Assembly (NCBI RefSeq): GCF_030013595.1
Contig: NZ_CP122769.1
From: Escherichia coli
GTDB taxonomy: Bacteria > Pseudomonadota > Gammaproteobacteria > Enterobacterales > Enterobacteriaceae
Reading direction: 5' to 3' (one strand)
DNA length: 64,000 nucleotides
Part shown: positions 31,723-52,654 of the stretch, in pieces
Position numbering within the stretch: position 1 is the first letter of the stretch
Layout of the letters: every line of letters starts with the position of its first letter
Translations under genes and position numbers: made by a program
Notes under the pieces: model-generated
What the model was told of the DNA's origin: nothing
Database searches by the model: none
The model's input: only the letters and a program-made list of their open reading frames with translations

Positions 31723-31744
31723 GACATCCCCTTAATTAATAAAA

Positions 31745-33314: not shown

Positions 33315-33331
33315 CGTAAGATTTAGCCTGC

Positions 33332-34540: not shown

Positions 34541-34550
34541 TATGATTTCC

Positions 34551-35510
34551 TTAATGATGCTGGGTCACGGTAAGTAATCTGATTCCATCAGCGCTTTGCT
34601 CGTTCTGTAACCCATAAAAACGAGCTCTGTCCAGAATGCCAGCCGCCCAGCGGCGATGTGTGGCGGGTTCACACATTGCTCCCTGCGACTTAAACACGGC
34701 CTGGGTAGAGTTCAGGATCCGCAGAGCGTCAGAATGCTCACCCTGAGTGACCATCAGCGCGTTTTGAATGACCTCTATCTGACCCGGGTGAATGGCCGTT
34801 TTCCCAACAAGCCCATGTGCCATATCAAGAGCCAGCTCTCTGGCCATTACGGCATGATCGTCAATATGCTCACATACGGGCGCGGTCAGGGCAAAATCAC
34901 GCGGGCCGAAGACCGAAACGAGCATTTTGATGACGTAGCCCATCGGGCTGTCATACAGCGTCAGGTCCCGGGGACGGCGAAGCGACACAACGTTCATAAG
35001 ATCGTTGCCGCCGATTCGAAGCGCAATAATGCGGTCGTGGCAGGGATGTTCCACCAGACGGGTGGCCAGCTCCCGCATCTGAACCACGTCAAAGACGTCT
35101 TCTGTTTCCAGCGTTGGCATCATGCACAGGTGAGTCCCGCCCATGATATCCCACCATTCAGCTAACGAACTGAGGGTAAATTTCGGCAACACAAACCCGT
35201 CGACAGCGGAAAGATCATAATGCGCTTTTAACCATCTGCCCATTTCGGCATGCCGGGGGCGAATGAACACCAGAGGCCAGTCATTTTTACCCAGGCTATG
35301 CATGCTGTTACTGAGCTCGTGCAGCAGGTGCTCCAGATTTTTGAGGGCGACGGGGATGTCTGCTTCACTGACAGCATCCTCCAGGCAAATCACCAGAGAG
35401 CGCAAACCCGGGATTTTCCCGTGCAGGACGGCATCAGCAATATCTTCCCGTGTTGCAGGCATGTATAGCGTGGCTCCCAGATTCCAGGGAGAAAGACGAT
35501 TTTTCATCAA
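34551..35510 (-). CDS. HpcH/HpaI aldolase / citrate-lyase beta-subunit-like TIM-barrel enzyme
   Basis: 319-aa product with CitE/HpcH-like features (LVICLEDA, ...RIGGNDL...); start overlaps upstream stop. Family assignment by recollection, not search. Confidence 0.6.
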   Translation of the reverse strand: MMKNRLSPWNLGATLYMPATREDIADAVLHGKIPGLRSLVICLEDAVSEADIPVALKNLEHLLHELSNSMHSLGKNDWPLVFIRPRHAEMGRWLKAHYDLSAVDGFVLPKFTLSSLAEWWDIMGGTHLCMMPTLETEDVFDVVQMRELATRLVEHPCHDRIIALRIGGNDLMNVVSLRRPRDLTLYDSPMGYVIKMLVSVFGPRDFALTAPVCEHIDDHAVMARELALDMAHGLVGKTAIHPGQIEVIQNALMVTQGEHSDALRILNSTQAVFKSQGAMCEPATHRRWAAGILDRARFYGLQNEQSADGIRLLTVTQHH

Positions 35511-36586
35511 AGTACCTTCTTGATAATGGTTACAGCCCGATACTGGCCGAGGGTTCCCCCCATTTCTGTAACAACTATTCCCTTTTCACGAGCAAGCCCT
35601 ACAAGCAAGGCAACGTCCGGGTCGTCAATAGAACGCACAAATACATGGTCCGGTACCCGACGTAATACAGCCCGGGTTGCTTCAGCAATACCGGGTTTTA
35701 TACGATTGACGCTGTCCACTTTAAATTCATCGGCCAGGAACGCGATAACGTCGCGACTTGTCTGCCATAAGATCCGGGCTGACTCCGTATTCCAGCTCAG
35801 GGGAGCGAGGGATGACGGGGTTAACTTCTTACGGAAATGAGCGACGGTATCGACAAGCATCCGGCTGCATTCGAATTCACTGAGATGCTCGCAAACCATG
35901 CACCCGTGTAATCCTTCAGAGGACCACACTGACCGGGAGATCAGGCCTGACACCGGCGCACCCATGATGCCAAAAGGAATGAGCCAGTCATCATCACTGG
36001 CTGCAAGCCAGGAGCAGCCACAGGGATCGGCCAGGACAACCAGTCGCGGCTGCTCAGGATAGCCCGGGCGATCTTTCAGTGCGCGTACAAGCTCTCCGGT
36101 AATTGCGCCTTTACCTGTCCATCCGTCAACAAAGACAATACCGCTGGTACCATGCCGCTCTTCAATGACGTCGAGGGCTGCACCGTCAATTCCACGATCC
36201 CGGATAATGCTGATACCGTAATGCCATGAGGTTTTCCCCATGTCACGCAGGGCCTGGTGCAGCATAACGCCGAGCGGCACGCCAGCCCTGACAAGACTGG
36301 CCAGTACAATGGGCTCATCACCAAAGCGTTTGGCCAGAGCAATAGCGAGCTGTGTGACTTCTTTTGCAAGTCTCTCTGCGCCCCGATCCAGCGCCCGGTG
36401 AAACAAATCAAGATGCCATTGTGTTGGCGCTGGCTCCTGACTGAGCATGTCCGAATAATGTTTCTTCCCTGACTGAATCAGCTCTTCTTTTTGCTCAACC
36501 GGCGTCATCTCAATGACAACCGGCTTTAGCAGAAATTCCACGTCACCGGGCTGGTATGAGCCGGTAAATGTGTCATGTGGCTGCAT
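35507..36586 (-). CDS. conserved ter-associated protein with degenerate phosphoribosyltransferase-like motif
   Basis: Start set at ATG 36586 (MQPHDTFTG), one nt after the HAD gene stop; motif GIVFVDGWTGKGAITGEL resembles a PRTase PRPP loop. Listed ORF extends to 36652. Confidence 0.5.
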   Translation of the reverse strand: MQPHDTFTGSYQPGDVEFLLKPVVIEMTPVEQKEELIQSGKKHYSDMLSQEPAPTQWHLDLFHRALDRGAERLAKEVTQLAIALAKRFGDEPIVLASLVRAGVPLGVMLHQALRDMGKTSWHYGISIIRDRGIDGAALDVIEERHGTSGIVFVDGWTGKGAITGELVRALKDRPGYPEQPRLVVLADPCGCSWLAASDDDWLIPFGIMGAPVSGLISRSVWSSEGLHGCMVCEHLSEFECSRMLVDTVAHFRKKLTPSSLAPLSWNTESARILWQTSRDVIAFLADEFKVDSVNRIKPGIAEATRAVLRRVPDHVFVRSIDDPDVALLVGLAREKGIVVTEMGGTLGQYRAVTIIKKVL

Positions 36587-36587
36587 T

Positions 36588-37361
36588 TTAATTTTCTCCA
36601 AAAATTCGCTGTGAAATGGCATCTGCAAACTGACTCTGACGCGGGATGCCAAACCAGCTGCACAGTTTCATAAAACGATGATCGCTCAGGCTGTCGCCCA
36701 GGCCAATTACGGGGAAGACTCCGCGTTCAGCCCGAAGTTTTTCAAGCAGCCATCTGACTGCCAGCCCTTTCTCAACCGGGGTGGGAAGCCAGGCCACGTT
36801 ATTACTGTTGCGGTGGATGTAGAAGCCCTCGGTCGGAAACACCGTTTCTATCTCATCTGCAATGGCATTGAGCTCGTCAAGGCGGGTGCTGTCGCGGTGC
36901 TTCATCACCATATAAACCGCCGTTTCACAGTATTCGAAGTTCAGCCTTGCCCAGGCATTGATCCCTTTTGCGTCCATCATTTCAGTGATCAGACGCTGCA
37001 TCGATGTCAGCTTTTCCTGGTAGGGAGCCAGCTGGCCAAGCATATGGGCCTTCCACTCCTCGTCGGGTTTGCCTTCAGGCGTGAGAATGACGGCCCCGTG
37101 CGTGGTGATTGCCCAGGAGTGGAAAGGGATCCGGACGCGGCTGATTTCTTCAGTTCCCCGGGCGGTAACAGGTATGAGTTCAGCCTGCTCCAGGAGCCAG
37201 TCCACCAACATGGACTGTTCTTCCGTCATAAAGCTTCGTGGATTCAGGGTGCGATCAACGGCACCGGTACGGAATGGCTCCAGGGCCAGCTCGTCCACCA
37301 TTTTACGACGGGTCTGAAAGAGCGTGTCGTCAAGGTCGCTCAGAACAACGGGTTTATTCAT
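36588..37361 (-). CDS. HAD-superfamily hydrolase
   Basis: Start set at MNKPVVLSDLDDTLFQ (HAD motif I DxDxT) with RBS GGAGA; listed ORF has a 112-codon upstream extension overlapping the PRTase gene. Confidence 0.65.
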   Translation of the reverse strand: MNKPVVLSDLDDTLFQTRRKMVDELALEPFRTGAVDRTLNPRSFMTEEQSMLVDWLLEQAELIPVTARGTEEISRVRIPFHSWAITTHGAVILTPEGKPDEEWKAHMLGQLAPYQEKLTSMQRLITEMMDAKGINAWARLNFEYCETAVYMVMKHRDSTRLDELNAIADEIETVFPTEGFYIHRNSNNVAWLPTPVEKGLAVRWLLEKLRAERGVFPVIGLGDSLSDHRFMKLCSWFGIPRQSQFADAISQRIFGEN

Positions 37362-38502
37362 AGGTAACAATCTCCACGACGGGCGCAACCTCAGCCAGGG
37401 CTTTAAGAAGCTGCGTGTCAATACTTTCTGCGGGTGTCTCAGTACACACAAGAATACGGTCAAACTGCTGGTGGGCGACGTTATAGACAAAATTGGGGAT
37501 GCCCAGCCCGTAGTTATCCGTAAAGGAAATGGCGGACTCAATGGCATAACCAACGGCGATAGGGGAGCGGGTGGTCGAACCATAAAGTGCCTGTGCTCCG
37601 GCAGCTTCGAGCCGTTCAGCAAGCAGGAACGGCTCCCAGACGAATTCCCCGGTCCCGAGAACCAGAATACGTTCCCCCTTGCGGACGGAGACCTCATGGC
37701 CGAGATCGGCCGCAGGTGCGAGCATCCCCAGTCGACCCCAGGACTGTTTTCCCAGGATGTCCCATTCTCCGCGTGAAGTTACGTTGACTTTCGGCATGTC
37801 CGGGACAGGTGCATCAGGTAATGGGGTCCATCCCCACTGACCGCTTACAAGCGAAACCGAAGTGACGGGCAAGGATGTGCGCTCCGACAGGGCGTTGCTA
37901 CTCCAGTCGGTAAGCGTAACGGCGATAACCTGTTCAATATGTTGAAGCTTGCCGGTATTACGCAGGGCAGAAAGCAGGTTAATAAAGGTATTACCGGTGG
38001 TTGCCTCGTCATCAATCAAAACCAGCGTTCGTGCGTTGGTAACACGACGTCTTTTCTCTTCATCATCTGGCAGATAGATCAGATGATCGGTGGCGTGGCT
38101 GTGTTCTTCCTTGAACTCGCAAAGTAACGTGCCATCAACCGGGTGACGGGTAGAGGTCAGATAGACAGATTCACGATGCTGGTGGCGCACTTCATCAAAC
38201 ACACCGGCCCCTAGCCCAACGGCGGTTTCAGCCATACCGATAAAAAGTACGGGCCCTGTCAGCGTTGCGGGGAACTGGCTGGCAAGCTGTCTGTAGGCCT
38301 GCCGCATGACTGAGGGTGGCACGGGAATGTGCCTGCCGAGTACTTTGCTGACAAACAGAAAGGCGCGTTTCGGGTTACGTCTTTCAGCGATATCAAACAG
38401 GTCATCGAGCGAAACATCACCCTGGTCGCGGGTTACCTGTATCGTACCGCATGAGAGGGTACGGCGATAAATCATATCTTCGAGGGTATCAGACATAAAC
38501 AC
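37354..38502 (-). CDS. phosphoribosyltransferase (PRTase) family protein
   Basis: PRPP-binding motif RTLVLIDDEATTGNTF. Confidence 0.7.
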   Translation of the reverse strand: MFMSDTLEDMIYRRTLSCGTIQVTRDQGDVSLDDLFDIAERRNPKRAFLFVSKVLGRHIPVPPSVMRQAYRQLASQFPATLTGPVLFIGMAETAVGLGAGVFDEVRHQHRESVYLTSTRHPVDGTLLCEFKEEHSHATDHLIYLPDDEEKRRRVTNARTLVLIDDEATTGNTFINLLSALRNTGKLQHIEQVIAVTLTDWSSNALSERTSLPVTSVSLVSGQWGWTPLPDAPVPDMPKVNVTSRGEWDILGKQSWGRLGMLAPAADLGHEVSVRKGERILVLGTGEFVWEPFLLAERLEAAGAQALYGSTTRSPIAVGYAIESAISFTDNYGLGIPNFVYNVAHQQFDRILVCTETPAESIDTQLLKALAEVAPVVEIVTYE

Positions 38503-38505
38503 GCC

Positions 38506-39564
38506 TTAATTCAGATGGTTAGAGAGTGATTCCGGGTAAACGATGACATCTGTGATGGATCTCACTGCAACCGGAGAAAAGGTATTTCTGGCGCTCTGGA
38601 TCACCGCATCTTCAGACATCAGACCGAGCTTAAAGGCAGCAAACAACCCGGGAAGGTTCACCCCGCTGTGAAGGGTATAACCCACCCCGCCTGACGGACG
38701 CATGTTGGTTTCAAGCAGCACCGGGTTGCCATTCACATCGTTTCGCGTCTGAACATTCACCAGCCCGTCGGCCTTCATAACCCGGGCGCAGTCACAAGCC
38801 AGTTCCCAGGCGCTTCCTTCGTTTACCAGATACTGGATAGCCCCTTCCTTACGGCGTCCCACGGCTGCGAGTATTTCGCCCTTATCCGCGAGGATATCGA
38901 CGGAAAATTCCGGGCCTGGCAGGTACGGCATCAAAACAAGGGGTTTAAACGACTCAGAAGCCGATGCTGCTGCAATATACTGTTGCGGACTGACCAGACG
39001 ATGTTCGGGATGATTAAAGACGGCCATGGGCGAAGCACTGTCATCAAAGCGCCAGAATCCCATGCCATAGATACCCGTCACCGGCTTCACGCATACCGGG
39101 CTGTCCGAGAACGGCGGGGCCGCGAGGTGCGTCTTTAATTCTGCCAGCGTATTCACCCGCCAGGACGGTACGACCGGGAGCCCGTTTTGCTCCATAAACT
39201 GAGCAAAAGTAACTTTTTCGTCAGCCAGAGTTAACCAGTCGACGCCTGTTGCACCGGTAGTAAGGGTGGCTCCGGTCGATTCAATGGCTGAACGGTGTTC
39301 TTCAAACCACTGGCTGTTACGGCCAGTATGAATATGGTGGATGCCGTAGGTCTGAATGGTTTCCTGAATAAACTGAAGACGTTTTTGAGGATCTTCAGGT
39401 TCAGTCAAAGAATAATCGGCAACGGAAAGAATTTCATGTCTTTCGTTACGGTGGGAGGCAAATACGGTAATAGCAAAATTATTTTTTTGTGCAAATGATT
39501 TTACCCCCTGAATAATATCTCGCTGGGAGGACAAACCTTCCATAAACCAAATTTTCTTGTTCAT
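38506..39564 (-). CDS. ATP-grasp family enzyme
   Basis: 352-aa product with ATP-grasp-like organisation; first gene of the minus-strand operon, divergent from terZ. Family assignment by recollection of ter-linked clusters. Confidence 0.6.
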   Translation of the reverse strand: MNKKIWFMEGLSSQRDIIQGVKSFAQKNNFAITVFASHRNERHEILSVADYSLTEPEDPQKRLQFIQETIQTYGIHHIHTGRNSQWFEEHRSAIESTGATLTTGATGVDWLTLADEKVTFAQFMEQNGLPVVPSWRVNTLAELKTHLAAPPFSDSPVCVKPVTGIYGMGFWRFDDSASPMAVFNHPEHRLVSPQQYIAAASASESFKPLVLMPYLPGPEFSVDILADKGEILAAVGRRKEGAIQYLVNEGSAWELACDCARVMKADGLVNVQTRNDVNGNPVLLETNMRPSGGVGYTLHSGVNLPGLFAAFKLGLMSEDAVIQSARNTFSPVAVRSITDVIVYPESLSNHLN

Positions 39565-39793
39565 TTTTTTTAATTATCCGGAACGCCATGCAAATTTATG
39601 ATTGAGAAGTGAGTCTATGAGTGTCTACGCTACATGTCAATCATAATATGATTAATAACTTCAGTGGTTATGGAGTGCGTCAGTGTTTTTTTAGTACCTT
39701 ATAACGTATTGATATTTAAATTAAAAATAGAAAAATGAACACCATGAAAAGGATTTATTTTTGTGTTTTTGAAGAAAACTACCAAAATTTCCC

Positions 39794-39821
39794 TTGTCAG
39801 AGAACTTCATCATGATATGAT
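39794..39821 (+). promoter_or_regulatory. candidate sigma70 promoter for terZABCDE (TTGTCA - 16 bp - TATGAT)
   Basis: -35 TTGTCA (39794-39799) and -10 TATGAT (39816-39821) in the AT-rich 320-bp divergent intergenic region upstream of terZ. Confidence 0.35.
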
Positions 39822-39886
39822 TTTCTTCGTCAGTTACTAAATATACCTTTGATTGTCTCGGTCATTACCATTTTAAGGAATAAAAC

Positions 39887-40468
39887 ATGGTTTCATTAGT
39901 TAAGAACCAGACGGTATCACTCAGCAAAGAATCAGCTGCATTAAGCCAGCTTCATTTCGGTCTCGGTTGGGATCCGGTTAAGAAAAAAGGTCTTCTTGGA
40001 GGATTGTTTGGAGGCAACGACTCAATCGATCTCGATGCTGGCTGCGTATTAATGGACAGCACCGGTAAAACAATTGACACCATCTGGTTCCGCAAACTGG
40101 AATCCACCTGCGGCGCTGTTGTGCACAGTGGCGATAACCTGACCGGTGAGGGTGACGGTGACGATGAGGTGATTAAGGTCAACCTCTCCCGACTGCCTGC
40201 AAACGTTGAATACCTGGCGTTTACGGTAAACAGCTTCCGTGGTCAGTCGTTCAATGACGTCGAAAACGCGTTCTGCCGCGTTGTCGATCAAACCGGCAAA
40301 GAGCTGGCTCGCTACAAGCTGACTGAGCAGGGCTCACATACCGGGATCGTTATTTCTTCGCTGCGCCGTAATAACGGCAACTGGGACTTTACCGCCCTTG
40401 GCCATGCCTGTCGCGGCCGCACAATTGACGATATGCACTCCGATATCGTTTCAGCGGTTATTCGCTAA
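39887..40468 (+). CDS. terZ: TerD-family protein TerZ
   Basis: TerD signature [13 protein letters not shown]; first gene of terZABCDE. Confidence 0.9.
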   Translation: MVSLVKNQTVSLSKESAALSQLHFGLGWDPVKKKGLLGGLFGGNDSIDLDAGCVLMDSTGKTIDTIWFRKLESTCGAVVHSGDNLTGEGDGDDEVIKVNLSRLPANVEYLAFTVNSFRGQSFNDVENAFCRVVDQTGKELARYKLTEQGSHTGIVISSLRRNNGNWDFTALGHACRGRTIDDMHSDIVSAVIR

Positions 40469-41625
40469 TGAACCTGACGCCGGGGGGCAATGCCCCCGTT
40501 CCAGCCCAGGAGTTGCGGGTCCGGATCACCTCGGGCGGCCAGGTGGATGCTTCGGCGTTTCGCCTGTATGCCGACGGGAAGGTGCAGGGTGATGCGGACA
40601 TGGTGTTTTATGGTCAGCCACGTAACGATGATGGTACCGTCAGCCTGGTCAGTGAAGGCCAGTACTCAACCTTTACTGTCGCGCTCAACCGGCTGAAACC
40701 TGATGTCCAGAAAATTGCGTTCACCGTGACCTGTGACGGTGGGCAGACGGTGTCCGGTCTTCGTAATCTTTCCATCGACGTGGAGCAAGGGGCTACCGGC
40801 CTGGTTAGCGGCAGTGTCGAACTGAGCGGCCGTCAGGAAGCAGCCTTAATTCTGGGTGAATTTTACCGTCGTAATAATGACTGGAAATTCCGCTTCGTTG
40901 CGCAGGGGTTCAACGGTGGACTTAAACCGCTGGCAGAGCATTTCGGCGTAAATATTGCCGACGAACCGGCTCCCGCAGCCCCGACTCCTCCGGTTGTAAC
41001 CCCTCCGCCAGTTGAGACAAAAATCAGCCTGAGCAAGGTATCGCTGACAAAAGAGAAGCCTGCAATCAGCCTGACCAAACGGGATAACTTCGGTGAAATC
41101 CGGATCAACCTGAACTGGCACCGGGGCAGCGGCAAATCAGGCTTTGCAGGCATGTTCGGCTCCAAAGGAATCGACCTGGATCTGGGGGCCTTTGTTGAGC
41201 TTCAGGACGGGTATAAATCGGTCATTCAGGCGCTCGGTAATGCATTCGGTAATTATCGCGATGAACCGTATGTTCAGCTCAAGGGCGATGACCGGACGGG
41301 TGATGTATCAGACGGCGAGTGGCTGCATATCAATGGACGTGAATGGAAGCATATCCGCGAAGTGCTGATTTACGCCTTTATTTATGAAGGTGTTCCCAGC
41401 TGGGACAAGACTGATGGTGTGGTCACCATTCATGTGCCGGATCAACCGCCCATTGAGACCCGCCTGACCGAAGGTGAAAACCGTCGCACATTGTGCGCCA
41501 TTGCCAGACTCGTAAACGAAAACGGCGCAATTAAAGTCGAGCGAATTAACCAGTACTTCAAAGGCCAGGACGAAATGGACCGGGCATTTGGCTGGGGATT
41601 TCGCTGGAGCGCCGGTTCTAAATAA
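40468..41625 (+). CDS. terA: tellurite resistance protein TerA
   Basis: 385-aa TerD-like protein at the TerA position; start overlaps terZ stop (TAATG). Confidence 0.85.
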   Translation: MNLTPGGNAPVPAQELRVRITSGGQVDASAFRLYADGKVQGDADMVFYGQPRNDDGTVSLVSEGQYSTFTVALNRLKPDVQKIAFTVTCDGGQTVSGLRNLSIDVEQGATGLVSGSVELSGRQEAALILGEFYRRNNDWKFRFVAQGFNGGLKPLAEHFGVNIADEPAPAAPTPPVVTPPPVETKISLSKVSLTKEKPAISLTKRDNFGEIRINLNWHRGSGKSGFAGMFGSKGIDLDLGAFVELQDGYKSVIQALGNAFGNYRDEPYVQLKGDDRTGDVSDGEWLHINGREWKHIREVLIYAFIYEGVPSWDKTDGVVTIHVPDQPPIETRLTEGENRRTLCAIARLVNENGAIKVERINQYFKGQDEMDRAFGWGFRWSAGSK

Positions 41626-41647
41626 CACAGCAACAAAGGAAACAGGT

Positions 41648-42103
41648 ATGAGCTTTTTCGACAAGGTAAAAGGTGCCATTAACTCTGGCCGGGACGAACT
41701 GACCCGCCAGGTTGGTCGTTTCAAAAACAAAAAATTTATGCACGGCACCGTTGCTGTATGTGCCCGTATTGCCGTATCGAGTGACGGCGTGAGTTCGGAA
41801 GAAAAGCAGAAAATGATGGGCTTTCTTCGCTCTTCAGAAGAGCTGAAGGTCTTCGATACCAATGAGGTGATCGAGTTCTTCAATAAACTGGTTTCAAGCT
41901 TCGATTTCGATGTTGAAATCGGCAAGGGCGAAACCATGAAATACATCCTGGCGCTGAAAGATCAGCCTGAGGCCGCTCAGCTGGCCTTACGTGTTGGTAT
42001 TGCCGTTGCGAAAAGTGACGGTAACTTCGATCAGGACGAGAAACTGGCCTCCCGCGAGATCGCTATCGCGTTGGGCTTCGACCCGGCTGAATTTGGCCTC
42101 TGA
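41648..42103 (+). CDS. terB: tellurite resistance protein TerB
   Basis: Start set at MSFFDKVKGA with RBS AGGAAACAGG; TerB-like sequence; listed ORF has a 20-codon upstream extension. Confidence 0.85.
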   Translation: MSFFDKVKGAINSGRDELTRQVGRFKNKKFMHGTVAVCARIAVSSDGVSSEEKQKMMGFLRSSEELKVFDTNEVIEFFNKLVSSFDFDVEIGKGETMKYILALKDQPEAAQLALRVGIAVAKSDGNFDQDEKLASREIAIALGFDPAEFGL

Positions 42104-42125
42104 TCCACATCCCTAAGGGTAAAAT

Positions 42126-43166
42126 ATGGTTTCCACACACATCGGCTTCCCGACTGAAACGGTCATTGTTTTCATTGCGCTTTCAGTCGGTGCCATCTTT
42201 ATTGACCTGTTTATGCACCGTGATGACAAGCCCATTTCCCTGAAGAGTGCGGCGCTCTGGTCCGTATTCTGGGTTGTGGTTGCGATGGCATTTGCCGGTT
42301 TCCTCTACATCCACCACGGTGCTGAGGTTGCCAGCCTGTTTGTAACGGGTTATGCGCTGGAGAAAGTGCTGTCGGTCGACAACCTGTTTGTCATGATGGC
42401 CATCTTCTCCTGGTTCGCCGTTCCTGATCGTTACCGCCACCGTGTTCTCTACTGGGGGATCATTGGTGCCATCGTCTTCAGGGGCATCTTTGTCGCCATC
42501 GGTACGAGCCTGCTGAGTCTGGGGCCGTATGTTGAAGTTGTCTTCGCTATCATCGTCGCCTGGACGGCGGTCATGATGCTTAAAAGCGGTGATGACGATG
42601 ATGAAATTGAGGATTATTCCCAGCATCTGGCTTACCGCATGGTTAAACGCTTCTTCCCTATCTGGCCGAAGCTCAGAGGTCATGCTTTCCTGCTTAACCA
42701 GAAGGAAGTGGATGCCGAACTGGCGAAACCAGAAAACAGCGATGTCACCATTGGCCGTGGTAAAAAGGCGGCGCTGTATGCGACCCCTCTGTTCCTGTGT
42801 GTGGCCGTGGTTGAACTCTCGGATGTTATGTTTGCGTTTGACTCGGTACCGGCAATCATTGCCGTCAGTCGTGAACCGCTTATCGTCTATAGTGCCATGA
42901 TGTTTGCTATCCTGGGCCTGCGTACTCTGTACTTTGTCCTTGAAGCACTGAAACAGTACCTGGTTCATCTGGAGAAGGCCGTTATCGTGCTGCTGTTCTT
43001 CATCGCGGCAAAACTGGGCCTGAATGCGACCGATCACATTTGGCATCATGGTTACAGCATCGCGGCGACAACCAGCCTGTATGTTGTACTGGGTGTTTTG
43101 GCGCTGGGCATTCTCGCAAGCGTCATGTTCCCGGGCAAACCTGAATCTGAGGAAAAGGGGAGCTGA
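42126..43166 (+). CDS. terC: integral membrane protein TerC
   Basis: 346 aa, multiple hydrophobic helices, conserved TerC-family sequence. Confidence 0.9.
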   Translation: MVSTHIGFPTETVIVFIALSVGAIFIDLFMHRDDKPISLKSAALWSVFWVVVAMAFAGFLYIHHGAEVASLFVTGYALEKVLSVDNLFVMMAIFSWFAVPDRYRHRVLYWGIIGAIVFRGIFVAIGTSLLSLGPYVEVVFAIIVAWTAVMMLKSGDDDDEIEDYSQHLAYRMVKRFFPIWPKLRGHAFLLNQKEVDAELAKPENSDVTIGRGKKAALYATPLFLCVAVVELSDVMFAFDSVPAIIAVSREPLIVYSAMMFAILGLRTLYFVLEALKQYLVHLEKAVIVLLFFIAAKLGLNATDHIWHHGYSIAATTSLYVVLGVLALGILASVMFPGKPESEEKGS

Positions 43167-43214
43167 TCCCCTGAAGTGTTAACCTGAACAATTACTAATC
43201 GAAGAGGTTATTTT

Positions 43215-43793
43215 ATGAGTGTTTCTCTTTCCAAAGGCGGGAACGTCTCCCTGAGTAAAGCAGCTCCGTCAATGAAAAACGTCCTGGTGGGCCTTGGCTG
43301 GGATGCGCGTTCAACAGACGGTCAGGACTTTGACCTGGATGCTTCAGCATTCCTGCTGGCCGCAAATGGCAAAGTGCGCGGCGATTCAGATTTCATCTTC
43401 TATAACAACCTGACGTCATCTGACGGTTCCGTAACCCATACCGGTGATAACCGTACCGGTGAAGGTGATGGTGATGATGAATCGCTGAAAATTAAACTGG
43501 ACGCCGTCCCGTCTGATGTTGACAAGATCATCTTCGTTGTCACTATCCATGATGCTCAGGCTCGTCGCCAGAGCTTTGGTCAGGTATCCGGTGCGTTTAT
43601 TCGCCTGGTCAATGACGATAACCAGACTGAAGTCGCTCGCTACGATCTGACCGAAGATGCGTCCACTGAGACTGCCATGCTGTTCGGCGAGCTGTATCGC
43701 CACAATGGTGAGTGGAAATTCCGCGCAGTGGGCCAGGGTTATGCTGGTGGTCTGGCATCTGTATGTGCTCAGTACGGCATTAACGCGTCCTGA
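43215..43793 (+). CDS. terD: tellurite resistance protein TerD
   Basis: [14 protein letters not shown]-terminus and [13 protein letters not shown] signature. Confidence 0.9.
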
Positions 43794-43860
43794 TCGAAAA
43801 GTAACTTTTCACCCGGGGCTGTTAATGCAGCCCTCATTCAACTGTTTGCAGGAGCTAAAA

Positions 43861-44436
43861 ATGGCAGTTTCTCTCGTAAAAGGCGGCAACGTATCTCTGA
43901 CCAAAGAAGCACCAACCATGAATATCGCTATGGTTGGCCTCGGCTGGGATGCCCGTGTAACTGACGGTCAGGCTTTTGACCTGGACGCTTCCGTGTTCGC
44001 AGTAGGCGAAGACGGTAAAGTGCTGTCAGATGCGCATTTCATTTTCTTCAATAACAAAACCAGCCCTGATGGCGCGGTAGAGCACCAGGGCGACAACCGT
44101 ACCGGTGAAGGCGACGGTGACGATGAGCAGGTCAAAATCGATCTGACCAAAGTCTCAGCAGATATCAAAAAACTGGTGTTTGCCGTTACCATCTATGATG
44201 CAGAAGCGCGTAAACAAAACTTCGGCATGGTGAGCAACAGCTTCATGCGCGTTTACAACAACGACAACGGCACGGAAATTGCCCGTTTCGATCTGTCTGA
44301 AGATGCCTCAACCGAAACCGCTATGGTCTTCGGTGAACTGTATCGTCATGGCGCTGAGTGGAAGTTTAAAGCTGTCGGTCAGGGCTTTGCCGGTGGCCTG
44401 GCGGCTCTTGCCTCCCAGCACGGCGTTAACATCTAA
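43861..44436 (+). CDS. terE: tellurite resistance protein TerE
   Basis: Start set at [13 protein letters not shown] with RBS CAGGAG; [13 protein letters not shown] signature; listed ORF has a 68-codon upstream extension overlapping terD. Confidence 0.9.
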
Positions 44437-44453
44437 AACAACGCTGAATCATA

Positions 44454-44478
44454 CCCCGGCAATGCCGGGGTTTTTTTT
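44454..44478 (+). terminator. Rho-independent terminator CCCCGGCAATGCCGGGG + T8
   Basis: Perfect 7-bp GC stem, 3-nt loop and TTTTTTTT, 18 bp after terE stop. Confidence 0.65.
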
Positions 44479-44864
44479 GGTTGCGATCCGCTTTCAGGAG
44501 GGAGTAGTAGAAAGGGGACTGGAAATTTCAGAAAGCAGGTCATGTTAATTCAGACCTGAGCCTTTTAAAGGCAGGAAACGGATTTATCTCTGGTTGCTGG
44601 TTAAAGCCGGTATTCCGTGCCTTTTATCAACAGAATGCCCCTCTGATATATGTTACTTTTGCGGTTTATGAAGGAACGGGATCTGGAACATAAGATACCC
44701 GGTCAATCAAAATTCCAGTTCAACAGGTATAGAAACTTCAGCGTGATGAAATATGGTGTCACACCATATATACGCCTCACCAGAAATCCAGCGTCCTGAA
44801 CTAAGCCTGGGGAACATATATAAGCGCTGCGCTTTAAAAATAATCAAAAATCAGGAGAGTTAAT

Positions 44865-46106
44865 GTGAATCTACAATCCGGACAAAACATACCGCTTCAG
44901 CAATCTGCGATCAGGCTGAATCTTCAGTACCCTGCCAAATCCGGCTTTAAAGGCGAACCCGATACCTGCCTCTTCCTGCTTAATGCTCAGGGAAAGGTAA
45001 CCGGCGATTCTGACTTTATCTTTTATAATAATCTGTCTTCTCCTGAAGGGGCAGTAAAGCTCGTTACCGGTTCTCAGCAGTCCAGCATTGAGATAGCACT
45101 GGATCGTGTTCCGGCGAACGTCAGTAAGATTGCGATCACCGTTGTCATTGATGGTGAAGATACTATCAGTGGGCTCAGTTTATTGAGCATTCAGGCTCCT
45201 GGTATCGCTGATTTTCAGGCTGAGACTCAGGGCCGCAGTGAGAAAGCAATCATCCTGGGTGAAGTATATCGGCACAATGGCGCCTGGAAGCTTCGTGCGC
45301 TCGGGCAGGGTTTCAACGGTGGTCTTGAGCCTCTGGCCATTAGCTTTGGCGTTGATGTCGCACAGCCAGCTCCGCAGCCAGCAAAGCCCGCTCGTATCAG
45401 TCTGGAAAAGAAACTTGAAACCAGATCTCCGCGCCTCGTAAGCCTCGCTAAAAAAGCCTCGGTCAGTCTCACTAAAAATAAACTGGACACCCTTGAGGCA
45501 GCGGTTGCATTTGTACTTGACGCATCCGGCTCAATGAGTGGCCAGTTCAGTAAGGGCAACGTTCAGTCTGTGCTGGACCGCATCGCCGTTCTTGCCGCCC
45601 AGTTCGACGACGACGGTGAAATGGATGTCTGGGGATTTGGAGAGAAGCACAAGAAGTATCCAAACGTCACACTGGACAACCTGGACACATATATTCAGTC
45701 CATTCGCGGGTCTGGAAAGCGTTCAGCCTGGGAGAACCTGCCGGGACTTGGTGGGACAAACAATGAGCCCCCTGTGATGGAAGAAATTGTCGACTACTTT
45801 AAGGACTCGAAAATCCCGGTATATGTTGTATTTATTACCGATGGCGGGATCAGCAAGACCCGGGCGATTAAAGATGCAATCCGGCGTTCTGCCAACTACC
45901 CCATCTTCTGGAAGTTTGTCGGCCTGGGTGGTTCAAGCTACGGTATCCTCAAAAATCTGGATGACTTTACTGACCGCCGGGTTGATAACACCCACTTCTT
46001 TGCCATGGATGATTTCGGTTCGATCAGCGATGAAAAGTTATATGATAATTTACTGGAAGAATTCAGACCGTGGATCGATGAAACAAAAAGGTTAGGCATC
46101 CTGTAA
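44865..46106 (+). CDS. terF: TerF: TerD-like N-terminal domain fused to vWA-like C-terminal domain, GTG start
   Basis: GTG start with RBS CAGGAGAG; N-terminal TerD-like region ([14 protein letters not shown]); C-terminal MIDAS-like LDASGSM and FITDGGIS. Confidence 0.8.
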
Positions 46107-46668
46107 TACGCACAGTTTTCGCATGGTTAAAGGAGCTCTACAGCAGCTTAATACTGTAGAGCCTTTGTTCACTGGAAATCGTACAGGGAGGAGCATATGG
46201 ACCGCATCAAGTACCTGAAATGGATAGCTGAAGAATCACCAACTGATGATGAAATCGACAACTACGATAGTATCATTAGTCGGGGCGCAGAAAGGGCCGA
46301 GAAGGTTCAGTTGTCTTTAAGACGTTAATATACGGGAGTTTAAATGTTCGCAGAAATCAAAGATAATTATTCGTTAGGTGGATAAAGAAAGGTTGCCATT
46401 ACCAGCTTTCGACGAGTCGAAAATAAAAACCTTATTTATAGTGACAGGGAGTATGAGCTGACGCTTGCCAATGGAACAATAATTAAAAATGTACTTAGAA
46501 AAGAAGAGTGGGAACTGTTAGAAAGCAATTCAATTAAGGTTATATTATAACGAAAATATATTTACAGTTTTGGATAGGTTTCAAACGAGTCCGGACATTT
46601 GTACCTGAAGTATCTGACATTACAGTTAAGTGACGATTATGTCAGCACGTCTGTTGCTGGCAGCTTAG

Positions 46669-46950
46669 CTATCGGTCTAAAAGCTGATCCATTAATAATT
46701 CTTCGTAAAGCCCAGAGGTATCGGGCTTTATTACAATATCCGTTATTTCGAAGCGTTCAAGTACAAATTGCAGATATTCCGGAGTAACGTAGTAGGGATC
46801 AGGTTCAGCCAGATTAGTATAGAGTGGGTCTTCTGCTGCATTAATGTCATAATCAATGCACATATGAAACCACTGCAAAGGTGGATCCCAGCCTAACATC
46901 ACCTGAACAATTCCCTGATTGCTTTTCACCTCATACCAGTGCTGGCTCAT
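46669..46950 (-). CDS. hypothetical small protein
   Basis: 93-aa ORF; no recognisable motifs. Confidence 0.3.
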   Translation of the reverse strand: MSQHWYEVKSNQGIVQVMLGWDPPLQWFHMCIDYDINAAEDPLYTNLAEPDPYYVTPEYLQFVLERFEITDIVIKPDTSGLYEELLMDQLLDR

Positions 46951-46999
46951 ACTTAGTCCTTAAGAAAATTTGTCATCGGAAAATAACACGAAGCCTGCA

Positions 47000-47191
47000 T
47001 CATCGAGGCGCATAACCTTCTTCCCTTAACGCCTGTTGTAATTTATCAACTGCGCTTTTCATTACCCAGGCTTCTTCGTCACTCACAGCACAACCACGTA
47101 GATCGCTCCAGCTCAGACGTTTAACAAATTGAGCAAGGGCCATAGTTTCGTTCTCATCAAGCCGCAAACTCAGTGTCTCAATACCTTCCAC
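47000..47191 (-). CDS. hypothetical small protein
   Basis: 63-aa ORF upstream of and co-directional with 46669-46950; no recognisable motifs. Confidence 0.3.
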   Translation of the reverse strand: MEGIETLSLRLDENETMALAQFVKRLSWSDLRGCAVSDEEAWVMKSAVDKLQQALREEGYAPR

Positions 47192-47282
47192 TATCTAACC
47201 TCCCTTATAATGAAAAATGGCGCTTTACTTCTGACCAGATGCCGAAGCCTTGAATGCAGCCGGAACTGTCGTTGTTTCTACT

Positions 47283-47654
47283 TTACAGAAATGGAATTAA
47301 AAAGTGGTGATGCTGGGCACGTTTCTTTTCCAGCCGGGGTTTAAGCCAGAGCTGAAACTCATTCAACTTCTCAGCAGCCAAAACCGCTTCAACGGGGAAA
47401 ACTTTATATTTACCCTGTTGCTGAGGTTCACCCAGCCATCGCCTGATGGCTCCGTCAGTCCATAAACGAGTCTCTTTTAGCCTAGTTACAGTGACCCATT
47501 TTCTGGACCATTCATCAAATTGTCGCTGGCGATCCCGATAACGTTGTTCTTCCTGCTGCCGAAGCCACTCGCGATCAACAGCAAATTTTCGGTATCCAAC
47601 AAAGAGCCCTTGTACTTTGGCCATGTCATATTCCGGTTGCTTAGAGTTACTCAT
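47283..47654 (-). CDS. hypothetical protein
   Basis: 123-aa ORF, basic and Arg/Gln-rich; no recognisable motifs. Confidence 0.35.
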   Translation of the reverse strand: MSNSKQPEYDMAKVQGLFVGYRKFAVDREWLRQQEEQRYRDRQRQFDEWSRKWVTVTRLKETRLWTDGAIRRWLGEPQQQGKYKVFPVEAVLAAEKLNEFQLWLKPRLEKKRAQHHHFLIPFL

Positions 47655-47957
47655 TCAACCAAAACCTAAACGTCGATACAAACTCTGTTTCATAACCAGG
47701 GTTTTATCCTTACCGCGACAGTAAGTAACAGGGGCTGCATAAACCGGTCATTTAGTCCGTTATGCAAAAATTATTGAGGATCCGGGCTGTTAAACTGTTC
47801 TTCCTCTTTCGCTTCCGGTGAAAAGGGGAGGTGTCACCCTGCGAGCCCGTGTAGTGAAAGGGATTCGTCGTAATACAGGCCAAAGGCTAACATGACCGCA
47901 AAGGACGCCCGGGCGACCGGATACCTGCCGGGTTGTGCGATGTAAAATCCGGAAGCA

Positions 47958-48389
47958 GTGATAACACAAACAGGCCCCTACAGCGTAAGGATTGTGATGG
48001 ACGATAAAGAGCAGTTTACGAATCTTGTGGCAAAGCATGCCTCCGGACTCACCGAAGAGCAGCTGGCCGGGTACGATGCCTGTTCCCTGGATGGTGAATG
48101 CGTCACGCCTTCATACGAGGTTTTCCGGGGGTATCGTACCCGCCACACACTGGATGAATTTCTGGAGATGGCCATATCGCTGAATGCCATCCACCCGGAT
48201 GAATATTTAACGGATATGCTGCTGAAGCCTCATGAGGTGATCGGCGCTCTGGCCGATGAAGGCGACCAGCTGAACAACGCCACCCCGGTTTATTTCTTTC
48301 CGGATACCGGCGTCTATGCAGCGGCCGTTAGTGAAACCCGGGTGCTCGATGCCTGGCTTTGCTGGCCATGCTACCCGGCGAACTGGTAA
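47958..48389 (+). CDS. hypothetical protein
   Basis: 143-aa ORF; the internal ATG (MDDKEQF) may be the true start. No recognisable motifs. Confidence 0.3.
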   Translation: MITQTGPYSVRIVMDDKEQFTNLVAKHASGLTEEQLAGYDACSLDGECVTPSYEVFRGYRTRHTLDEFLEMAISLNAIHPDEYLTDMLLKPHEVIGALADEGDQLNNATPVYFFPDTGVYAAAVSETRVLDAWLCWPCYPANW

Positions 48390-48457
48390 CGCGGCCGTTG
48401 GAATTGCACCGGCCGGATACGAATTTAACCGACCCCGTGGCGGGAAGGCTATCAGAG

Positions 48458-48710
48458 TTGCATGTCCTCATCCCTCAAGCCCCCTGCCAGGCCCCAACGT
48501 GCTGTCAGGCTTCGCCTGATTCCCGATCTGCGCCGATACTTCAGCCGATAACTTTTTGTTTTCTTTTTATTTTCTTCCCATCTCCTCAAAAATCGCGGGC
48601 GGCGTGGACAGGGCACCATTGCCGCATGTGGGGTCTTAATAAGGGCAGGGTGGTCAGTTTTGCTCGATGCCAGGGGTAGGCCCTCCCCTTCATGGGATGA
48701 GGACATGCAA
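48458..48710. repeat. 253-bp segment bounded by a perfect 17-bp inverted repeat (TTGCATGTCCTCATCCC / GGGATGAGGACATGCAA)
   Basis: Inverted repeat read directly from sequence at 48458-48474 and 48694-48710; interior is non-coding. Confidence 0.35.
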
Positions 48711-48862
48711 GTAAGCTAACTATCTGAAATGACGAAGGTTCATTTGGTGAATGTCGCTTCATATTAATGTTGTGTCACTTATGATCGTATGTAGCTGGTT
48801 GCAAAGAGGAGCGATGAGACAATAAAGTTGTATCGCTAACAAGATTTATGCTGCCACATAGT

Positions 48863-48960
48863 AACAGCCTAAAAGTTGTACGCCCTATTTAACAGCTTTT
48901 AGGCTGTTAATTTGATATTACAGCTTTTAGGGTGTATGTTTAGGAAACAGCCTGCAAGGT
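48863..48960 (+). promoter_or_regulatory. hipBA promoter/operator region with repeated ACAGCYTW-type palindromes
   Basis: Palindromes AACAGCCTAAAAG..., AACAGCTTTTAGGCTGTT, ACAGCTTTTAGGGTGT, AACAGCCTGCAAGGTGT; embedded TTGATA - 17 bp - TATGTT (48912-48940) promoter-like hexamers. Confidence 0.45.
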
Positions 48961-48989
48961 GTATCAGAGGAAACTACTGAGGCCAGCTT

Positions 48990-49286
48990 ATGATCAATAA
49001 TGATTACCCGTTAAACACGCTCAACCAGCTGCGTCCCTTGCTCATTGGTTTTCGCAAGGCGAATGGCCTGACGCAAAAAGACCTGTCCGAAAGGTTAGGC
49101 GTCACTCAACAGACATACTCACGTCTGGAAGCCAACCCTGCCAGTGCGAGCATTGAACGGCTATTCAAGGTGTTTTCCATCCTGGGCGTAAAAATCAGCT
49201 TCTCCTCGGCAACCACCTCTTCAGAGAGGAAGCAGACGGAAGAAATGCTTAAATCAAACTCACCTGCACGACAGGAGGATTGGTAA
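48990..49286 (+). CDS. hipB: HipB antitoxin (Cro/C1-type HTH)
   Basis: HTH segment GLTQKDLSERLGVTQQTYSRLE; immediately upstream of hipA with 4-bp gap. Confidence 0.85.
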   Translation: MINNDYPLNTLNQLRPLLIGFRKANGLTQKDLSERLGVTQQTYSRLEANPASASIERLFKVFSILGVKISFSSATTSSERKQTEEMLKSNSPARQEDW

Positions 49287-49290
49287 CGAT

Positions 49291-50616
49291 ATGAGCCGGA
49301 AACAGCAACGTCTGGTAATTTGGATGAACGGCATCAAAGTCGGGTACTGGGAAAAAAGCAAAGGGGTAGACAGCTTAGAATACCTTCCTGAATGGGTTGC
49401 TGACGAACAGGGAAGGCCGCTGTCATTGTCCCTTCCTTTTACTCCCGGGAACCAGGTCTGGCGTGGAAATGTGGTACGTGACTATTTTGATAATTTACTG
49501 CCGGACAGCGAAGGCATACGCAGACGTCTGGCAATGCGTTACAAGGCCGATAGCCTGGAGCCTTTTGATCTGCTGACGGAGCTGGGAAAAGACTGCGTGG
49601 GCGCGATACAGCTGCTTCATGACGGAGATGAACCCACTGATTTATATTCCGTGAAGTATCACCCGCTTACTGAATCAGAAATTGCGGCAACTTTGCGTAA
49701 TACCACGGAGACATTGCTACCGGGCAGGCCAGAAGATAACGACGACTTACGTTTATCTATTGCCGGTGCTCAGGAGAAAACAGCCCTACTGTGGCATGAA
49801 GATCGGTGGTGTATGCCGGAGGGTAATACACCAACGACGCATATATTCAAGCTACCGCTCGGACTTGTGGGGAACATGAAAGCCGACATGAGCTCGTCGG
49901 TTGAAAATGAATGGCTCTGCTCGGTACTTCTCGGCCAGTACGGGCTCCCCGTGGCAAGAACGCAGATTGCTCACTTTGAAGATCAGAAAGCGCTGGTGGT
50001 AGAACGTTTTGACCGAAAATGGTCAGGAGACGGACAATGGATCATTCGTTTACCCCAGGAGGATATGTGTCAGGCCCTGGGCGTTTCGCCATTACGAAAA
50101 TATCAGGCGGACGGCGGGCCAGGTATATCGGAAATTATGGAGGTTCTGAGTAATTCAGACCGTGCTGAGCGTGACAAAGCGCAGTTTTTTATGACGCAGA
50201 TAATTTTCTGGATGATGGCCGCAACAGATGGCCACGCTAAAAATTTCAGTATTTCTATTGGGCCACAGGGACGTTATCACCTTACACCAAACTATGATGT
50301 GTTGTCGGCATGGCCGGTGATCGGTCATGGGAACAATCAGATATCCTGGCAGAAGTGCAAACTGGCGATGGCCGTACGTGGCAGTAGCAACTATTACCAG
50401 ATATATCGAATACAACGACGCCACTGGATCAGGCATGGTGAGATAACCGGCCTGAGTAAACAGCAGACAGAGGCGATGATAGAGGAAATCATCGCCAGAA
50501 CCCCGGGTGTCATTGAACGTGTTAGCGGGCTTCTTCCGGACCAGTTCCCCCAGCAGCTTGCGGAAAGTATTTTTGATGGAATGAGGCAGCAATGCAGGCG
50601 CCTGGCTGAGAAATGA
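49291..50616 (+). CDS. hipA: HipA serine/threonine kinase toxin
   Basis: Colinear with E. coli HipA including SIAGAQEKTALL, VERFDR, RLPQEDMCQ and ATDGHAKNFS motifs. Confidence 0.9.
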   Translation: MSRKQQRLVIWMNGIKVGYWEKSKGVDSLEYLPEWVADEQGRPLSLSLPFTPGNQVWRGNVVRDYFDNLLPDSEGIRRRLAMRYKADSLEPFDLLTELGKDCVGAIQLLHDGDEPTDLYSVKYHPLTESEIAATLRNTTETLLPGRPEDNDDLRLSIAGAQEKTALLWHEDRWCMPEGNTPTTHIFKLPLGLVGNMKADMSSSVENEWLCSVLLGQYGLPVARTQIAHFEDQKALVVERFDRKWSGDGQWIIRLPQEDMCQALGVSPLRKYQADGGPGISEIMEVLSNSDRAERDKAQFFMTQIIFWMMAATDGHAKNFSISIGPQGRYHLTPNYDVLSAWPVIGHGNNQISWQKCKLAMAVRGSSNYYQIYRIQRRHWIRHGEITGLSKQQTEAMIEEIIARTPGVIERVSGLLPDQFPQQLAESIFDGMRQQCRRLAEK

Positions 50617-50676
50617 CAGCCGCAATTTATAGTGTGCATGTTTTCAGAATAGCTGATGTAAGCGTGAGGATTCAGT

Positions 50677-50883
50677 ATGACTGAAGAACAAAAAAGAATA
50701 GAGCGGGCTATTGAGTTGGCTTGTCGTTACGGCGGAACCGATGAAATGCATCATCTGCAATGGGTCGTGGATCAGATGGTAAGAGAACTTGCTGGAGAAC
50801 GTTATGCACAGATTGTAGCTGATGCCACCAGCGGAGAAGATGGGCCTGATACTTACAAATGGAGTGTTGGGATCGCGCCTTAA
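50677..50883 (+). CDS. hypothetical small protein
   Basis: 68-aa ORF with RBS GAGGA upstream; no recognisable motifs. Confidence 0.35.
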   Translation: MTEEQKRIERAIELACRYGGTDEMHHLQWVVDQMVRELAGERYAQIVADATSGEDGPDTYKWSVGIAP

Positions 50884-50984
50884 CAGCTGTCGGTCTGGGG
50901 GTGAAAACGTATTCTTCATTCAGCGAATTCCCAGGCTTCACATTAAGACTAAAGCGGCGGCCGCAGTAACGTAAGAGAAAATAA

Positions 50985-51395
50985 ATGGCTATTTTAGCAA
51001 TCATTGCAGTTATCGCCCTGGGTGGGTACGCCTACGGATTTATTAAAACCCGTGAGCTGAGCGCTTTGCGTAAAGAAATGAAACTATACGTGGATCGCAT
51101 GGAAGCGGCGGAGCTGGACTTACACGCAATCAGAAGTGTAGCGGAGCACCGGTTGCACGGTGCAGGTAAACAGTTTGCCGACCTTTACAGCCGTATCGAC
51201 GGTGCAACTGTGACGCTGACACCCGAAGATCAGCTGTTACTGGCAACGATGCCATTTAATATTCAGGATGTAGAAGACATCGTAAACGAGCGCGGTCCAA
51301 AGACAATTAGCGGCCGTCCATTCTGGGAAGTTGAGCCAGGCCTGCATGATTATGAATATGGCCCGCAATATCCGTATTTCCCAGACCAGCGCTAG
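50985..51395 (+). CDS. hypothetical protein with N-terminal transmembrane helix
   Basis: 136-aa ORF; N-terminus MAILAIIAVIALGGYAYGFI; 12 bp upstream of HNH gene. Confidence 0.4.
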   Translation: MAILAIIAVIALGGYAYGFIKTRELSALRKEMKLYVDRMEAAELDLHAIRSVAEHRLHGAGKQFADLYSRIDGATVTLTPEDQLLLATMPFNIQDVEDIVNERGPKTISGRPFWEVEPGLHDYEYGPQYPYFPDQR

Positions 51396-51407
51396 GAAGA
51401 GATCAAG

Positions 51408-52598: not shown

Positions 52599-52654
52599 GG
52601 GTGATGATGCCAACTTACTGATTTAGTGTATGATGGTGTTTTTGAGGTGCTCCA

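Follow-up and report, generated by a model that had tools for sequence, protein, structure and literature searches.

What is the tellurite-resistance (ter) locus carried by this stretch of Escherichia coli DNA, how is its last gene, terF, expressed, and how might its products act? The locus, terZABCDEF, occupies positions 39887-46106 of 64,000 nucleotides from contig NZ_CP122769.1 (RefSeq assembly GCF_030013595.1), referred to here as the window. A preliminary description presented it as complete terZABCDE genes followed by a separately transcribed terF. It attributed to the locus type tellurite resistance, phage inhibition and colicin resistance, which are indeed the phenotypes reported in the literature on it (PMC8193136, PMC8115787, PMC12054061). 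The first question can be answered with near certainty: the region is the terZABCDEF determinant of an R478-type IncHI2 conjugative plasmid. It is an already known object and no new member or variant. Taken as a whole, the explanation developed below is held with high confidence, most of which attaches to what the locus is.

Identity of the locus

Positions 39600-46400 of the window (6801 bp) are 100.0% identical to many plasmids typed as IncHI2A/MOBH, whose hosts include E. coli, Salmonella, Klebsiella and Yersinia. Identity of this length to many deposited plasmids means that the locus is no chance pattern. At a threshold of at least 99% identity, 701 plasmid records match the same segment. 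The relationship extends into the flanking DNA: over positions 1-25000 the window matches the Salmonella IncHI2 plasmid NZ_CP117034.1 at 100% identity, a direct comparison of positions 1-29933 and 45933-64000 with that plasmid gave 99.99% identity, and the window opens within trhI, a transfer gene of IncHI plasmids.

R478, an IncHI2 plasmid from Serratia marcescens (NC_005211), is the plasmid on which the ter genes were reportedly defined in 1995, by Whelan, Colleran and Taylor. The preliminary description had proposed a comparison with R478-type plasmids and the O157 ter islands, and this comparison bears its assignment out. The ter segment shares 97.3% nucleotide identity with R478 over 6643 bp, and terZ-E is about 96% identical to the chromosomal islands. 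The wider segment 15787-46242 (30.4 kb) is collinear with R478 at 98.0%. All seven proteins have the same lengths as in R478 and are 97.8-100% identical to their counterparts there; TerC is 100% identical, both to the R478 protein and to the E. coli chromosomal one. Furthermore, terZ-E spans 4550 bp (39887-44436) on an IncHI2 backbone, which fits the 4.55-kb E. coli ‘ter-type 2’, the type to which IncHI2-borne ter operons belong (Nguyen et al. 2021, PMC8193136).

Homology to R478 ends 136 bp past terF, at position 46242. The open reading frame (ORF) that follows terF is 132 nt long here (46197-46328), compared with 456 nt in R478 (region 46242-46892).

Being identical to hundreds of sequenced IncHI2 plasmids, the locus adds little as a sequence finding. 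Its presence does identify the window as part of an IncHI2 backbone; growth on tellurite selective media is to be expected, as is co-selection with the resistance genes of such plasmids.

Gene order and intactness

The seven genes lie on the plus strand in the order Z-A-B-C-D-E-F. None is interrupted in the ORF list for 38-48 kb or has an internal stop, and all keep their R478 lengths, so that the description of terZABCDE and terF as complete and intact stands. First in order are terZ (39887-40468; 193 amino acids (aa), 99.0% identical to R478 TerZ and equal in length) and terA (40468-41625; 385 aa, 99.7%), the start codon of terA overlapping the stop of terZ in the sequence ATGA. They are followed by terB (41648-42103; 151 aa, 99.3%), terC (42126-43166; 346 aa), terD (43215-43793; 192 aa), terE (43861-44436; 191 aa, 99.0%) and, after a longer gap, terF (44865-46106; 413 aa, 97.8%). 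Successive intergenic distances from terZ to terE are -1, 22, 22, 48 and 67 bp, and a further 428 bp separates terE from terF, close to the 430 bp given previously.

For two genes, terB and terE, the ORF list starts too far 5' (TTG at 41588 and ATG at 43657, respectively). Their ATG starts were therefore set from R478, RefSeq annotation and gene lengths. The resulting lengths of terZ to terE equal the published values of 582/1158/456/1041/579/576 bp (PMC8193136). As previously described, terF has its own ribosome-binding site (AGGAG, 44853-44857) and a GTG start codon at 44865. This start is secure because R478 likewise has GTG at the homologous codon, where the Klebsiella locus and the chromosomal loci of E. 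coli have ATG.

Protein domains

Five of the seven products, TerZ, TerA, TerD, TerE and TerF, match the Pfam TerD profile (PF02342) with 115-294 bits, above its gathering cutoff of 25.3 bits. TerD itself is the archetype (E 3.4e-88) and matches the solved Klebsiella TerD structures 2KXT/2KXV in the PDB at E 2.7e-122. Its paralogue TerE (E 1.2e-85) is 65% identical to it, and TerZ (E 2.6e-46) is a single domain with the canonical Ca2+-loop motif. In an alignment of the TerD-type domains of the cluster, the loop GDN(R/L)TG(E/A)GDGDDE is present in TerD, TerE, TerZ and TerX, the last of which is encoded further upstream. We take this loop to be the Ca2+ site of the 2KXV structure work.

TerA (E 3.8e-33, aa 24-159) and the N-terminal part of TerF (E 4e-35, aa 1-161) do not have this loop. 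Instead, both carry a seven-residue deletion, with SEGQYS/TGSQQS in its place. Their N-domains are each other's closest paralogues (46% identity, E 1e-46) and are, judged from sequence, a distinct Ca2+-loop-less subtype of the TerD domain (40468-40995 and 44865-45380). The two proteins are also built alike, with the N-domain followed by a Pro-rich linker and then a second domain. In TerA, this C-terminal half scores below the Pfam TerD cutoff (E 0.011, 15.6 bits) and gave no significant BLASTP match to TerZ; it is possibly a very divergent TerD-like domain. In TerF, the second domain (aa 212-412) matches the Pfam profile ‘vWA found in TerF C terminus’ (PF10138; E 2.6e-69, 233.8 bits against a cutoff of 29.4), which agrees with the TerD-like and vWA-like architecture proposed before. 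The residues of its metal ion-dependent adhesion site (MIDAS) are complete in the translation (DASGS, GGTNNE and FITDGG, for the pattern DxSxS...T...D).

The other two products belong to different families. TerB is a helical-domain protein (Pfam TerB, E 1.6e-20) that matches the PDB entry 2JXU, ‘TerB’, at E 1e-84. TerC is an integral membrane protein of the TerC/Alx family within the LysE superfamily (Pfam TerC, PF03741, E 2.2e-42), scoring 360 bits against a cutoff of 246.4 on the NCBIfam TerC/Alx model TIGR03718.

Promoters, terminator and the expression of terF

Upstream of terZ, a region of 322 bp (39565-39886) separates it from a divergently transcribed ATP-grasp gene. It contains a candidate terZ promoter, TTGTCA-16-(TG)-TATGAT (39794-39821), which matches 10/12 consensus positions and has an extended -10. 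Two copies of the motif ATCATRATATGAT (39640-39652 and 39809-39821) sit in the only blocks of this region that are invariant among IncHI2, E. coli and Klebsiella loci; the motif itself is unaltered even in Klebsiella. One copy overlaps the -10 of the candidate terZ promoter, while the other lies next to the -35 of the promoter for the divergent genes. Both are likely candidates for operators of the regulator TerW, for which protection in the region upstream of terZ has been reported (PMC7843439, in its account of Valkovicova 2011).

At the other end of the operon, the strong terminator placed after terE at 44454-44478 was found at 44453-44478 by terminator scan and folding. Its perfect 9-bp, G+C-rich stem, ACCCCGGCA/TGCCGGGGT (44453-44471), begins 17 bases past the terE stop and is followed by eight T (44471-44478). 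The predicted fold has an energy of -19.9 kcal/mol (z = -3.1), equalled by 0/200 shuffles. R478, the chromosomal islands of E. coli O45:H2 and O157:H7, and the Klebsiella IncHI1B locus all retain the stem and T-run, with differences in the loop.

Comparison across lineages sharpens this picture, as the terminator is conserved and the spacer behind it is not. The non-coding spacer (44479-44864, plus strand) shows 87-91% identity between lineages, a lower figure than the 96-97% of the locus as a whole. The Klebsiella IncHI1B locus is missing about 345 bp of this spacer (within 44479-44850), so that only 42 nt lie between the T-run and the ATG of terF (6180-6221 of the compared record); terF is nevertheless intact there.

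Can terF then be regarded as separately transcribed, as first described? Sequence does not establish this, given that the best promoter match is 8/12, ATCATRATATGAT is absent and the Klebsiella gap is 42 nt. Since 42 nt is too short for a promoter plus leader, read-through or attenuation is at least as likely. The simplest reading over all lineages would be that the terminator acts as an attenuator, holding terF expression under that of terZ-E. In the IncHI2/E. coli lineage, this read-through is possibly supplemented by a weak promoter.

What counts against attenuation is that the spacer holds a weak promoter-like site overlapped by a perfect palindrome. The site, TAGAAA-16-TATGGT (44730-44757), is the best sigma-70-like match of a permissive scan, and its -10-like TATGGT is overlapped by the 19-bp palindrome ATATGGTGT-C-ACACCATAT (44751-44769), about 95 bp 5' of the terF start. 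The palindrome looks like an operator and occurs once in the window. From these features it could be argued that terF is an independent unit, with transcription coming to a full stop at the terE terminator and starting again from a repressor-controlled promoter at 44730-44757, an alternative regarded as rather doubtful. The strength and conservation of the terminator would suit it, as would the length of the spacer, the AGGAG belonging to terF alone, and the uniqueness of a palindrome for which shuffled windows average 0.01 matches. However, 8/12 is a modest promoter match, and a standard promoter scan of the plus strand of the spacer passes no site. The palindrome is unchanged in an R478-like IncHI2 plasmid but carries two differences in the E. 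coli chromosomal lineage and is absent from Klebsiella; at 87% spacer identity, neutral drift alone predicts as many changes, and so there is no sign of selection on it. Klebsiella, moreover, keeps its intact terF without the 345-bp segment, and the operator-like motif that is conserved in the terZ region does not occur in the spacer with up to one mismatch allowed. Attenuation with read-through is preferred, terF probably being expressed below the level of terZ-E.

Other candidate functions for the spacer were rejected. An Rfam scan of 39400-46700 for structured RNAs or riboswitches returned only sub-threshold, terminator-like matches; for the yybP-ykoY riboswitch it gave nothing at E <= 1 beyond such noise. 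Folding of the spacer is not unusual relative to shuffles (z = -1.5). A small protein gene was discounted as well, as ORFs of 49 and 36 aa are not conserved across the window, R478, O45 and O157. Finally, the spacer is no dispersed repeat, miniature inverted-repeat transposable element (MITE) or insertion sequence (IS) remnant: the 5426 complete E. coli genomes searched contain it no more than once for each ter locus.

TerF as a probable accessory component

Several observations set terF apart from the other six genes. In O157:H7, it is an annotated pseudogene of about 102 codons (9260-9565 of the compared record); homology to the window stops at position 45170, where a transposase remnant and iha adjoin. 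O45:H2, by contrast, encodes a full-length TerF of 413 aa. Over the E. coli genomes surveyed above, 697 chromosomal and 282 plasmid places carry the spacer, and 187 chromosomal and 283 plasmid places carry the vWA half of terF (45170-46106). From these counts, the vWA half has been lost in about 73% of chromosomal copies and kept in essentially all plasmid copies.

TerF has also diverged further from its Klebsiella counterpart than any of the other six proteins, at 68% identity compared with 79-97%. Experimental work in related systems points in a similar direction. For example, transposon insertions in terE and terF of R478 left the tellurite, phage and colicin phenotypes unaffected, according to the summary of Whelan 1995 in PMC12054061. 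Likewise, a terW-terZABCDE-deltaF clone is listed with the same tellurite minimum inhibitory concentration (MIC) as the wild-type clinical strain (PMC11003894). Overall, terF looks like an accessory and the fastest-evolving member of the locus, dispensable for the three classical phenotypes.

The wider ter cluster

The preliminary description located terZ-F correctly at 39887-46106. This interval, however, is about one third of a ter supercluster of about 20 kb (26155-46106), the remaining two thirds of which lie at 26155-39564, all on the minus strand.

Nearest to terZ, positions 33332-39564 form what appears from Pfam matches and annotation to be a divergent ‘biosynthetic’ (metabolite-synthesis) module. 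From the terZ side outwards, it encodes an ATP-grasp_Ter ligase (38506-39564), a PRTase_2/TRSP protein (37354-38496), a HAD-like phosphatase (36588-37361), a StiP protease with a PELOTA domain (35507-36586), a TIM-barrel C-C lyase (34551-35507) and a DUF4236 protein (33332-34540). Next comes terW (32850-33314), a helix-turn-helix (HTH) regulator identified by AMRFinder at 100% and by a weak WYL/HTH match.

Beyond terW, Pfam profiles identify terY for a small vWA protein (31745-32383), terX of the TerD family (31081-31722) and a second terY for another small vWA protein (30443-31081). The far end of the cluster carries, as in R478, an intact TerY phosphorylation triad (26155-30357). It consists of a vWA+TerY-C protein (29317-30357; Pfam VWA and TerY_C), a PP2C phosphatase (27680-29317; PP2C_2, E 1.3e-46) and a Ser/Thr protein kinase (26155-27654; Pkinase, E 5.8e-10).

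In a related plasmid with mcr-1, pSE08-00436-1, an ISApl1-mcr-1-pap2 cassette stands in place of window positions 27137-28610. The cassette deletes the 5' end of the kinase gene and the PP2C domain.

Possible mechanisms of Ter action

The present copy gives no new handle on how the Ter proteins act. A TerC-centred mechanism is proposed here tentatively, as an account somewhat more apt to be wrong in its particulars than right. Under this proposal, terZ-terE would be transcribed from the promoter about 70 bp 5' of terZ, in the region bound by TerW, and the products would assemble as a complex at the inner membrane face with TerC as its core. TerC may act as a divalent-cation (Mn2+, Zn2+, Ca2+) exporter or metal chaperone of the TerC/Alx type. 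The soluble Ca2+-binding beta-sandwich proteins TerD, TerE and TerZ, together with the degenerate TerA and the helical TerB, could then serve as cation-sensing or regulatory cytoplasmic subunits. Tellurite would not be detoxified chemically; rather, a shift in envelope and metal/redox homeostasis would allow oxidative and envelope damage to be tolerated, an output that would also cover tolerance of polymyxin B and cetylpyridinium. Blocking of some phage infections and of killing by pore-forming colicins might follow as a side effect of the envelope change. TerF would be an accessory, metal-dependent adaptor acting through its MIDAS vWA domain and no core component, probably made in smaller amounts through incomplete termination after terE, whether or not the weak spacer promoter contributes.

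Several published results are consistent with this proposal. The terZ-F genes suffice for tellurite resistance in E. coli (PMC8115787), and all three phenotypes (phage, colicin and tellurite) are lost when terZ, terC or terD carries an insertion (Whelan 1995, as relayed in PMC12054061). Mutation of terC in Klebsiella raises sensitivity to Zn, Mn, tellurite and some phages, and the ter operon there is strongly induced by Zn (PMC12054061). Members of the TerC family export Mn2+ and metalate secreted enzymes or exoenzymes (PMC12096827). In addition, tellurite stress is felt at the envelope, and TerC confers tolerance of polymyxin B and cetylpyridinium (PMC9933665).

Other points weigh against it. 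Publications as late as 2025 still describe the function as unknown (PMC8115787, PMC12054061), in keeping with the preliminary description, which had called the mechanism unresolved. In one study of Klebsiella, TerC was not needed under metal and reactive oxygen species stress (PMC9933665). A PDB sequence search with TerC returned no solved relative. The physical TerC-TerD/B complex is itself a prediction with limited proteomic support.

Could the locus instead act on tellurite directly, with TerC pumping it out or TerD-family proteins binding or reducing it? Colonies of ter-positive bacteria blacken with Te(0), and TerC is a membrane transporter-like protein, both of which would suit such detoxification. 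On the other hand, TerD presumably binds Ca2+ (2KXV family), older measurements of tellurite uptake and efflux, to our knowledge, saw no difference, and Pfam finds no reductase, methyltransferase or thiol-enzyme domain among the terZ-F products. The operon does lift the tellurite MIC to 64-256 ug/mL (PMC8193136), but TerC-family proteins export cations (Mn2+/Ca2+) and not oxyanions (PMC12096827), and detoxification does not explain resistance to phages, colicins, polymyxin and Zn (PMC12054061, PMC9933665). Direct detoxification is thus considered very improbable.

A stronger case, albeit for a reading still judged unlikely, can be made for a primary function against phages. Here, the locus would be an abortive-infection or membrane effector working with the triad and a nucleoside-like messenger, and tellurite resistance would be a by-product seen in the laboratory. 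The vWA+TerY-C/PP2C/kinase triad lies within the cluster, such a triad is said to defend against phage as ‘TerY-P’ in the work of Gao et al. 2020, and the ter locus is carried by mobile elements. Tellurite, in turn, is rare in nature (PMC8115787). Phage inhibition maps to terZ, terC, terD and partly terA in the account of Whelan 1995 given by PMC12054061, and deletion of terC in Klebsiella led to larger plaques and reduced survival with 4/8 phages (PMC12054061). These effects are nonetheless modest, as they concern plaque size, with plating efficiency altered for one phage only (PMC12054061). The terZ-F genes confer the phenotypes without the triad (PMC8115787), and the locus aids gut and bladder fitness and antiseptic and antibiotic tolerance where no phage is involved (PMC8115787, PMC9933665). 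Moreover, none of the PADLOC v2 models matches a Ter protein, the vWA+TerY-C protein or the PP2C phosphatase; across the cluster proteins, PADLOC v2 gave nothing beyond weak matches of the kinase to other kinase models and a weak WYL-type match.

A broader proposal would join the whole cluster of about 20 kb (26155-46106) into one stress or immunity pathway with three parts: the triad as a switch, a nucleoside-like signal, which the PRTase/ATP-grasp/HAD/lyase module may make, and a TerC-TerD/B cation-flux effector. The three-part idea reportedly traces to Anantharaman et al. 2012. In the version considered here, TerF would form the bridge, since it is the only cluster protein that joins a TerD-type domain to a TerY-type vWA domain, and it would be under separate control in the IncHI2/E. 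coli lineage through an acquired 345-bp spacer with its palindrome. This bridge role and lineage-specific control are our own speculation, and the proposal in its entirety is decidedly improbable. The TerC-centred mechanism remains the preferred account, tentative as it is.

Neighbouring genes in the window

The rest of the window holds further plasmid genes. Near trhI, positions 3905-10194 carry genes for an AAA ATPase, a DUF3150 protein, a 672-aa vWA protein and a toprim-domain protein. An IS21-family element (istA/istB, 13662-15786), with a G+C content of about 0.53 in a background of 0.36-0.39, is an insertion that R478 and most related plasmids do not have; only a few records, for example NZ_CP117034.1, share it. 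Downstream of terF, annotation mapped from NZ_CP117034.1 places a pair of genes for a HipB-like HTH protein and a HipA toxin at about 48993-50616, and a Tn7-like tnsA/tnsB/tnsC/tnsD module at about 55366-61363.

Comparison with known systems

Parts of the cluster resemble systems known from elsewhere. The segment 26155-30357 has the same vWA/PP2C/Ser-Thr kinase architecture as TerY-P (Gao et al. 2020). Here, however, the triad belongs to a far larger ter cluster, and the PADLOC models match neither its vWA protein nor its PP2C protein. Similarly, TerC fits the same TerC/Alx subfamily model as Alx of E. coli and MeeF/MeeY of Bacillus subtilis. Unlike these proteins, it shares its operon with TerB and five TerD-family genes. 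Alx and MeeY, though not all TerC proteins, have a yybP-ykoY Mn2+ riboswitch, and none precedes terC in the window.

Closer relatives are the chromosomal islands of Shiga toxin-producing E. coli (STEC), such as SpLE1/OI-43/48 of O157:H7, classed as ‘ter-type 1’ (PMC8193136). Over terZ-E and the spacer they share about 96% nucleotide identity with the window, their proteins are 97-100% identical to those described here, and they have the same terminator and the same divergent ATP-grasp and PRTase genes. In contrast to the window, these islands are chromosomal and prophage-like, their terF starts with ATG and their spacer palindrome is imperfect. In O157:H7 and most other chromosomal copies, terF is cut at about 102 codons and has no vWA domain.

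The pK2044-type/IncHI1B plasmids of Klebsiella pneumoniae have the same seven genes, divergent module, terminator stem and motifs upstream of terZ, with 68-97% protein identity to the window. They have about 85 bp between terE and terF, compared with 428 bp here, and a HAD hydrolase gene lies downstream of their ter locus, unlike in the window.

The nearest of the classical systems is R478 itself. It has the same gene order, the same 428-bp spacer, the same GTG start of terF and the same terminator, and it shares with the window the upstream divergent module and the terW, terX/terY and triad genes. At the nucleotide level, the two differ by about 2.7% across the ter genes and by 8.8% across the spacer. 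Unlike R478, the window falls in the sublineage formed by recent IncHI2 plasmids of E. coli and Salmonella.

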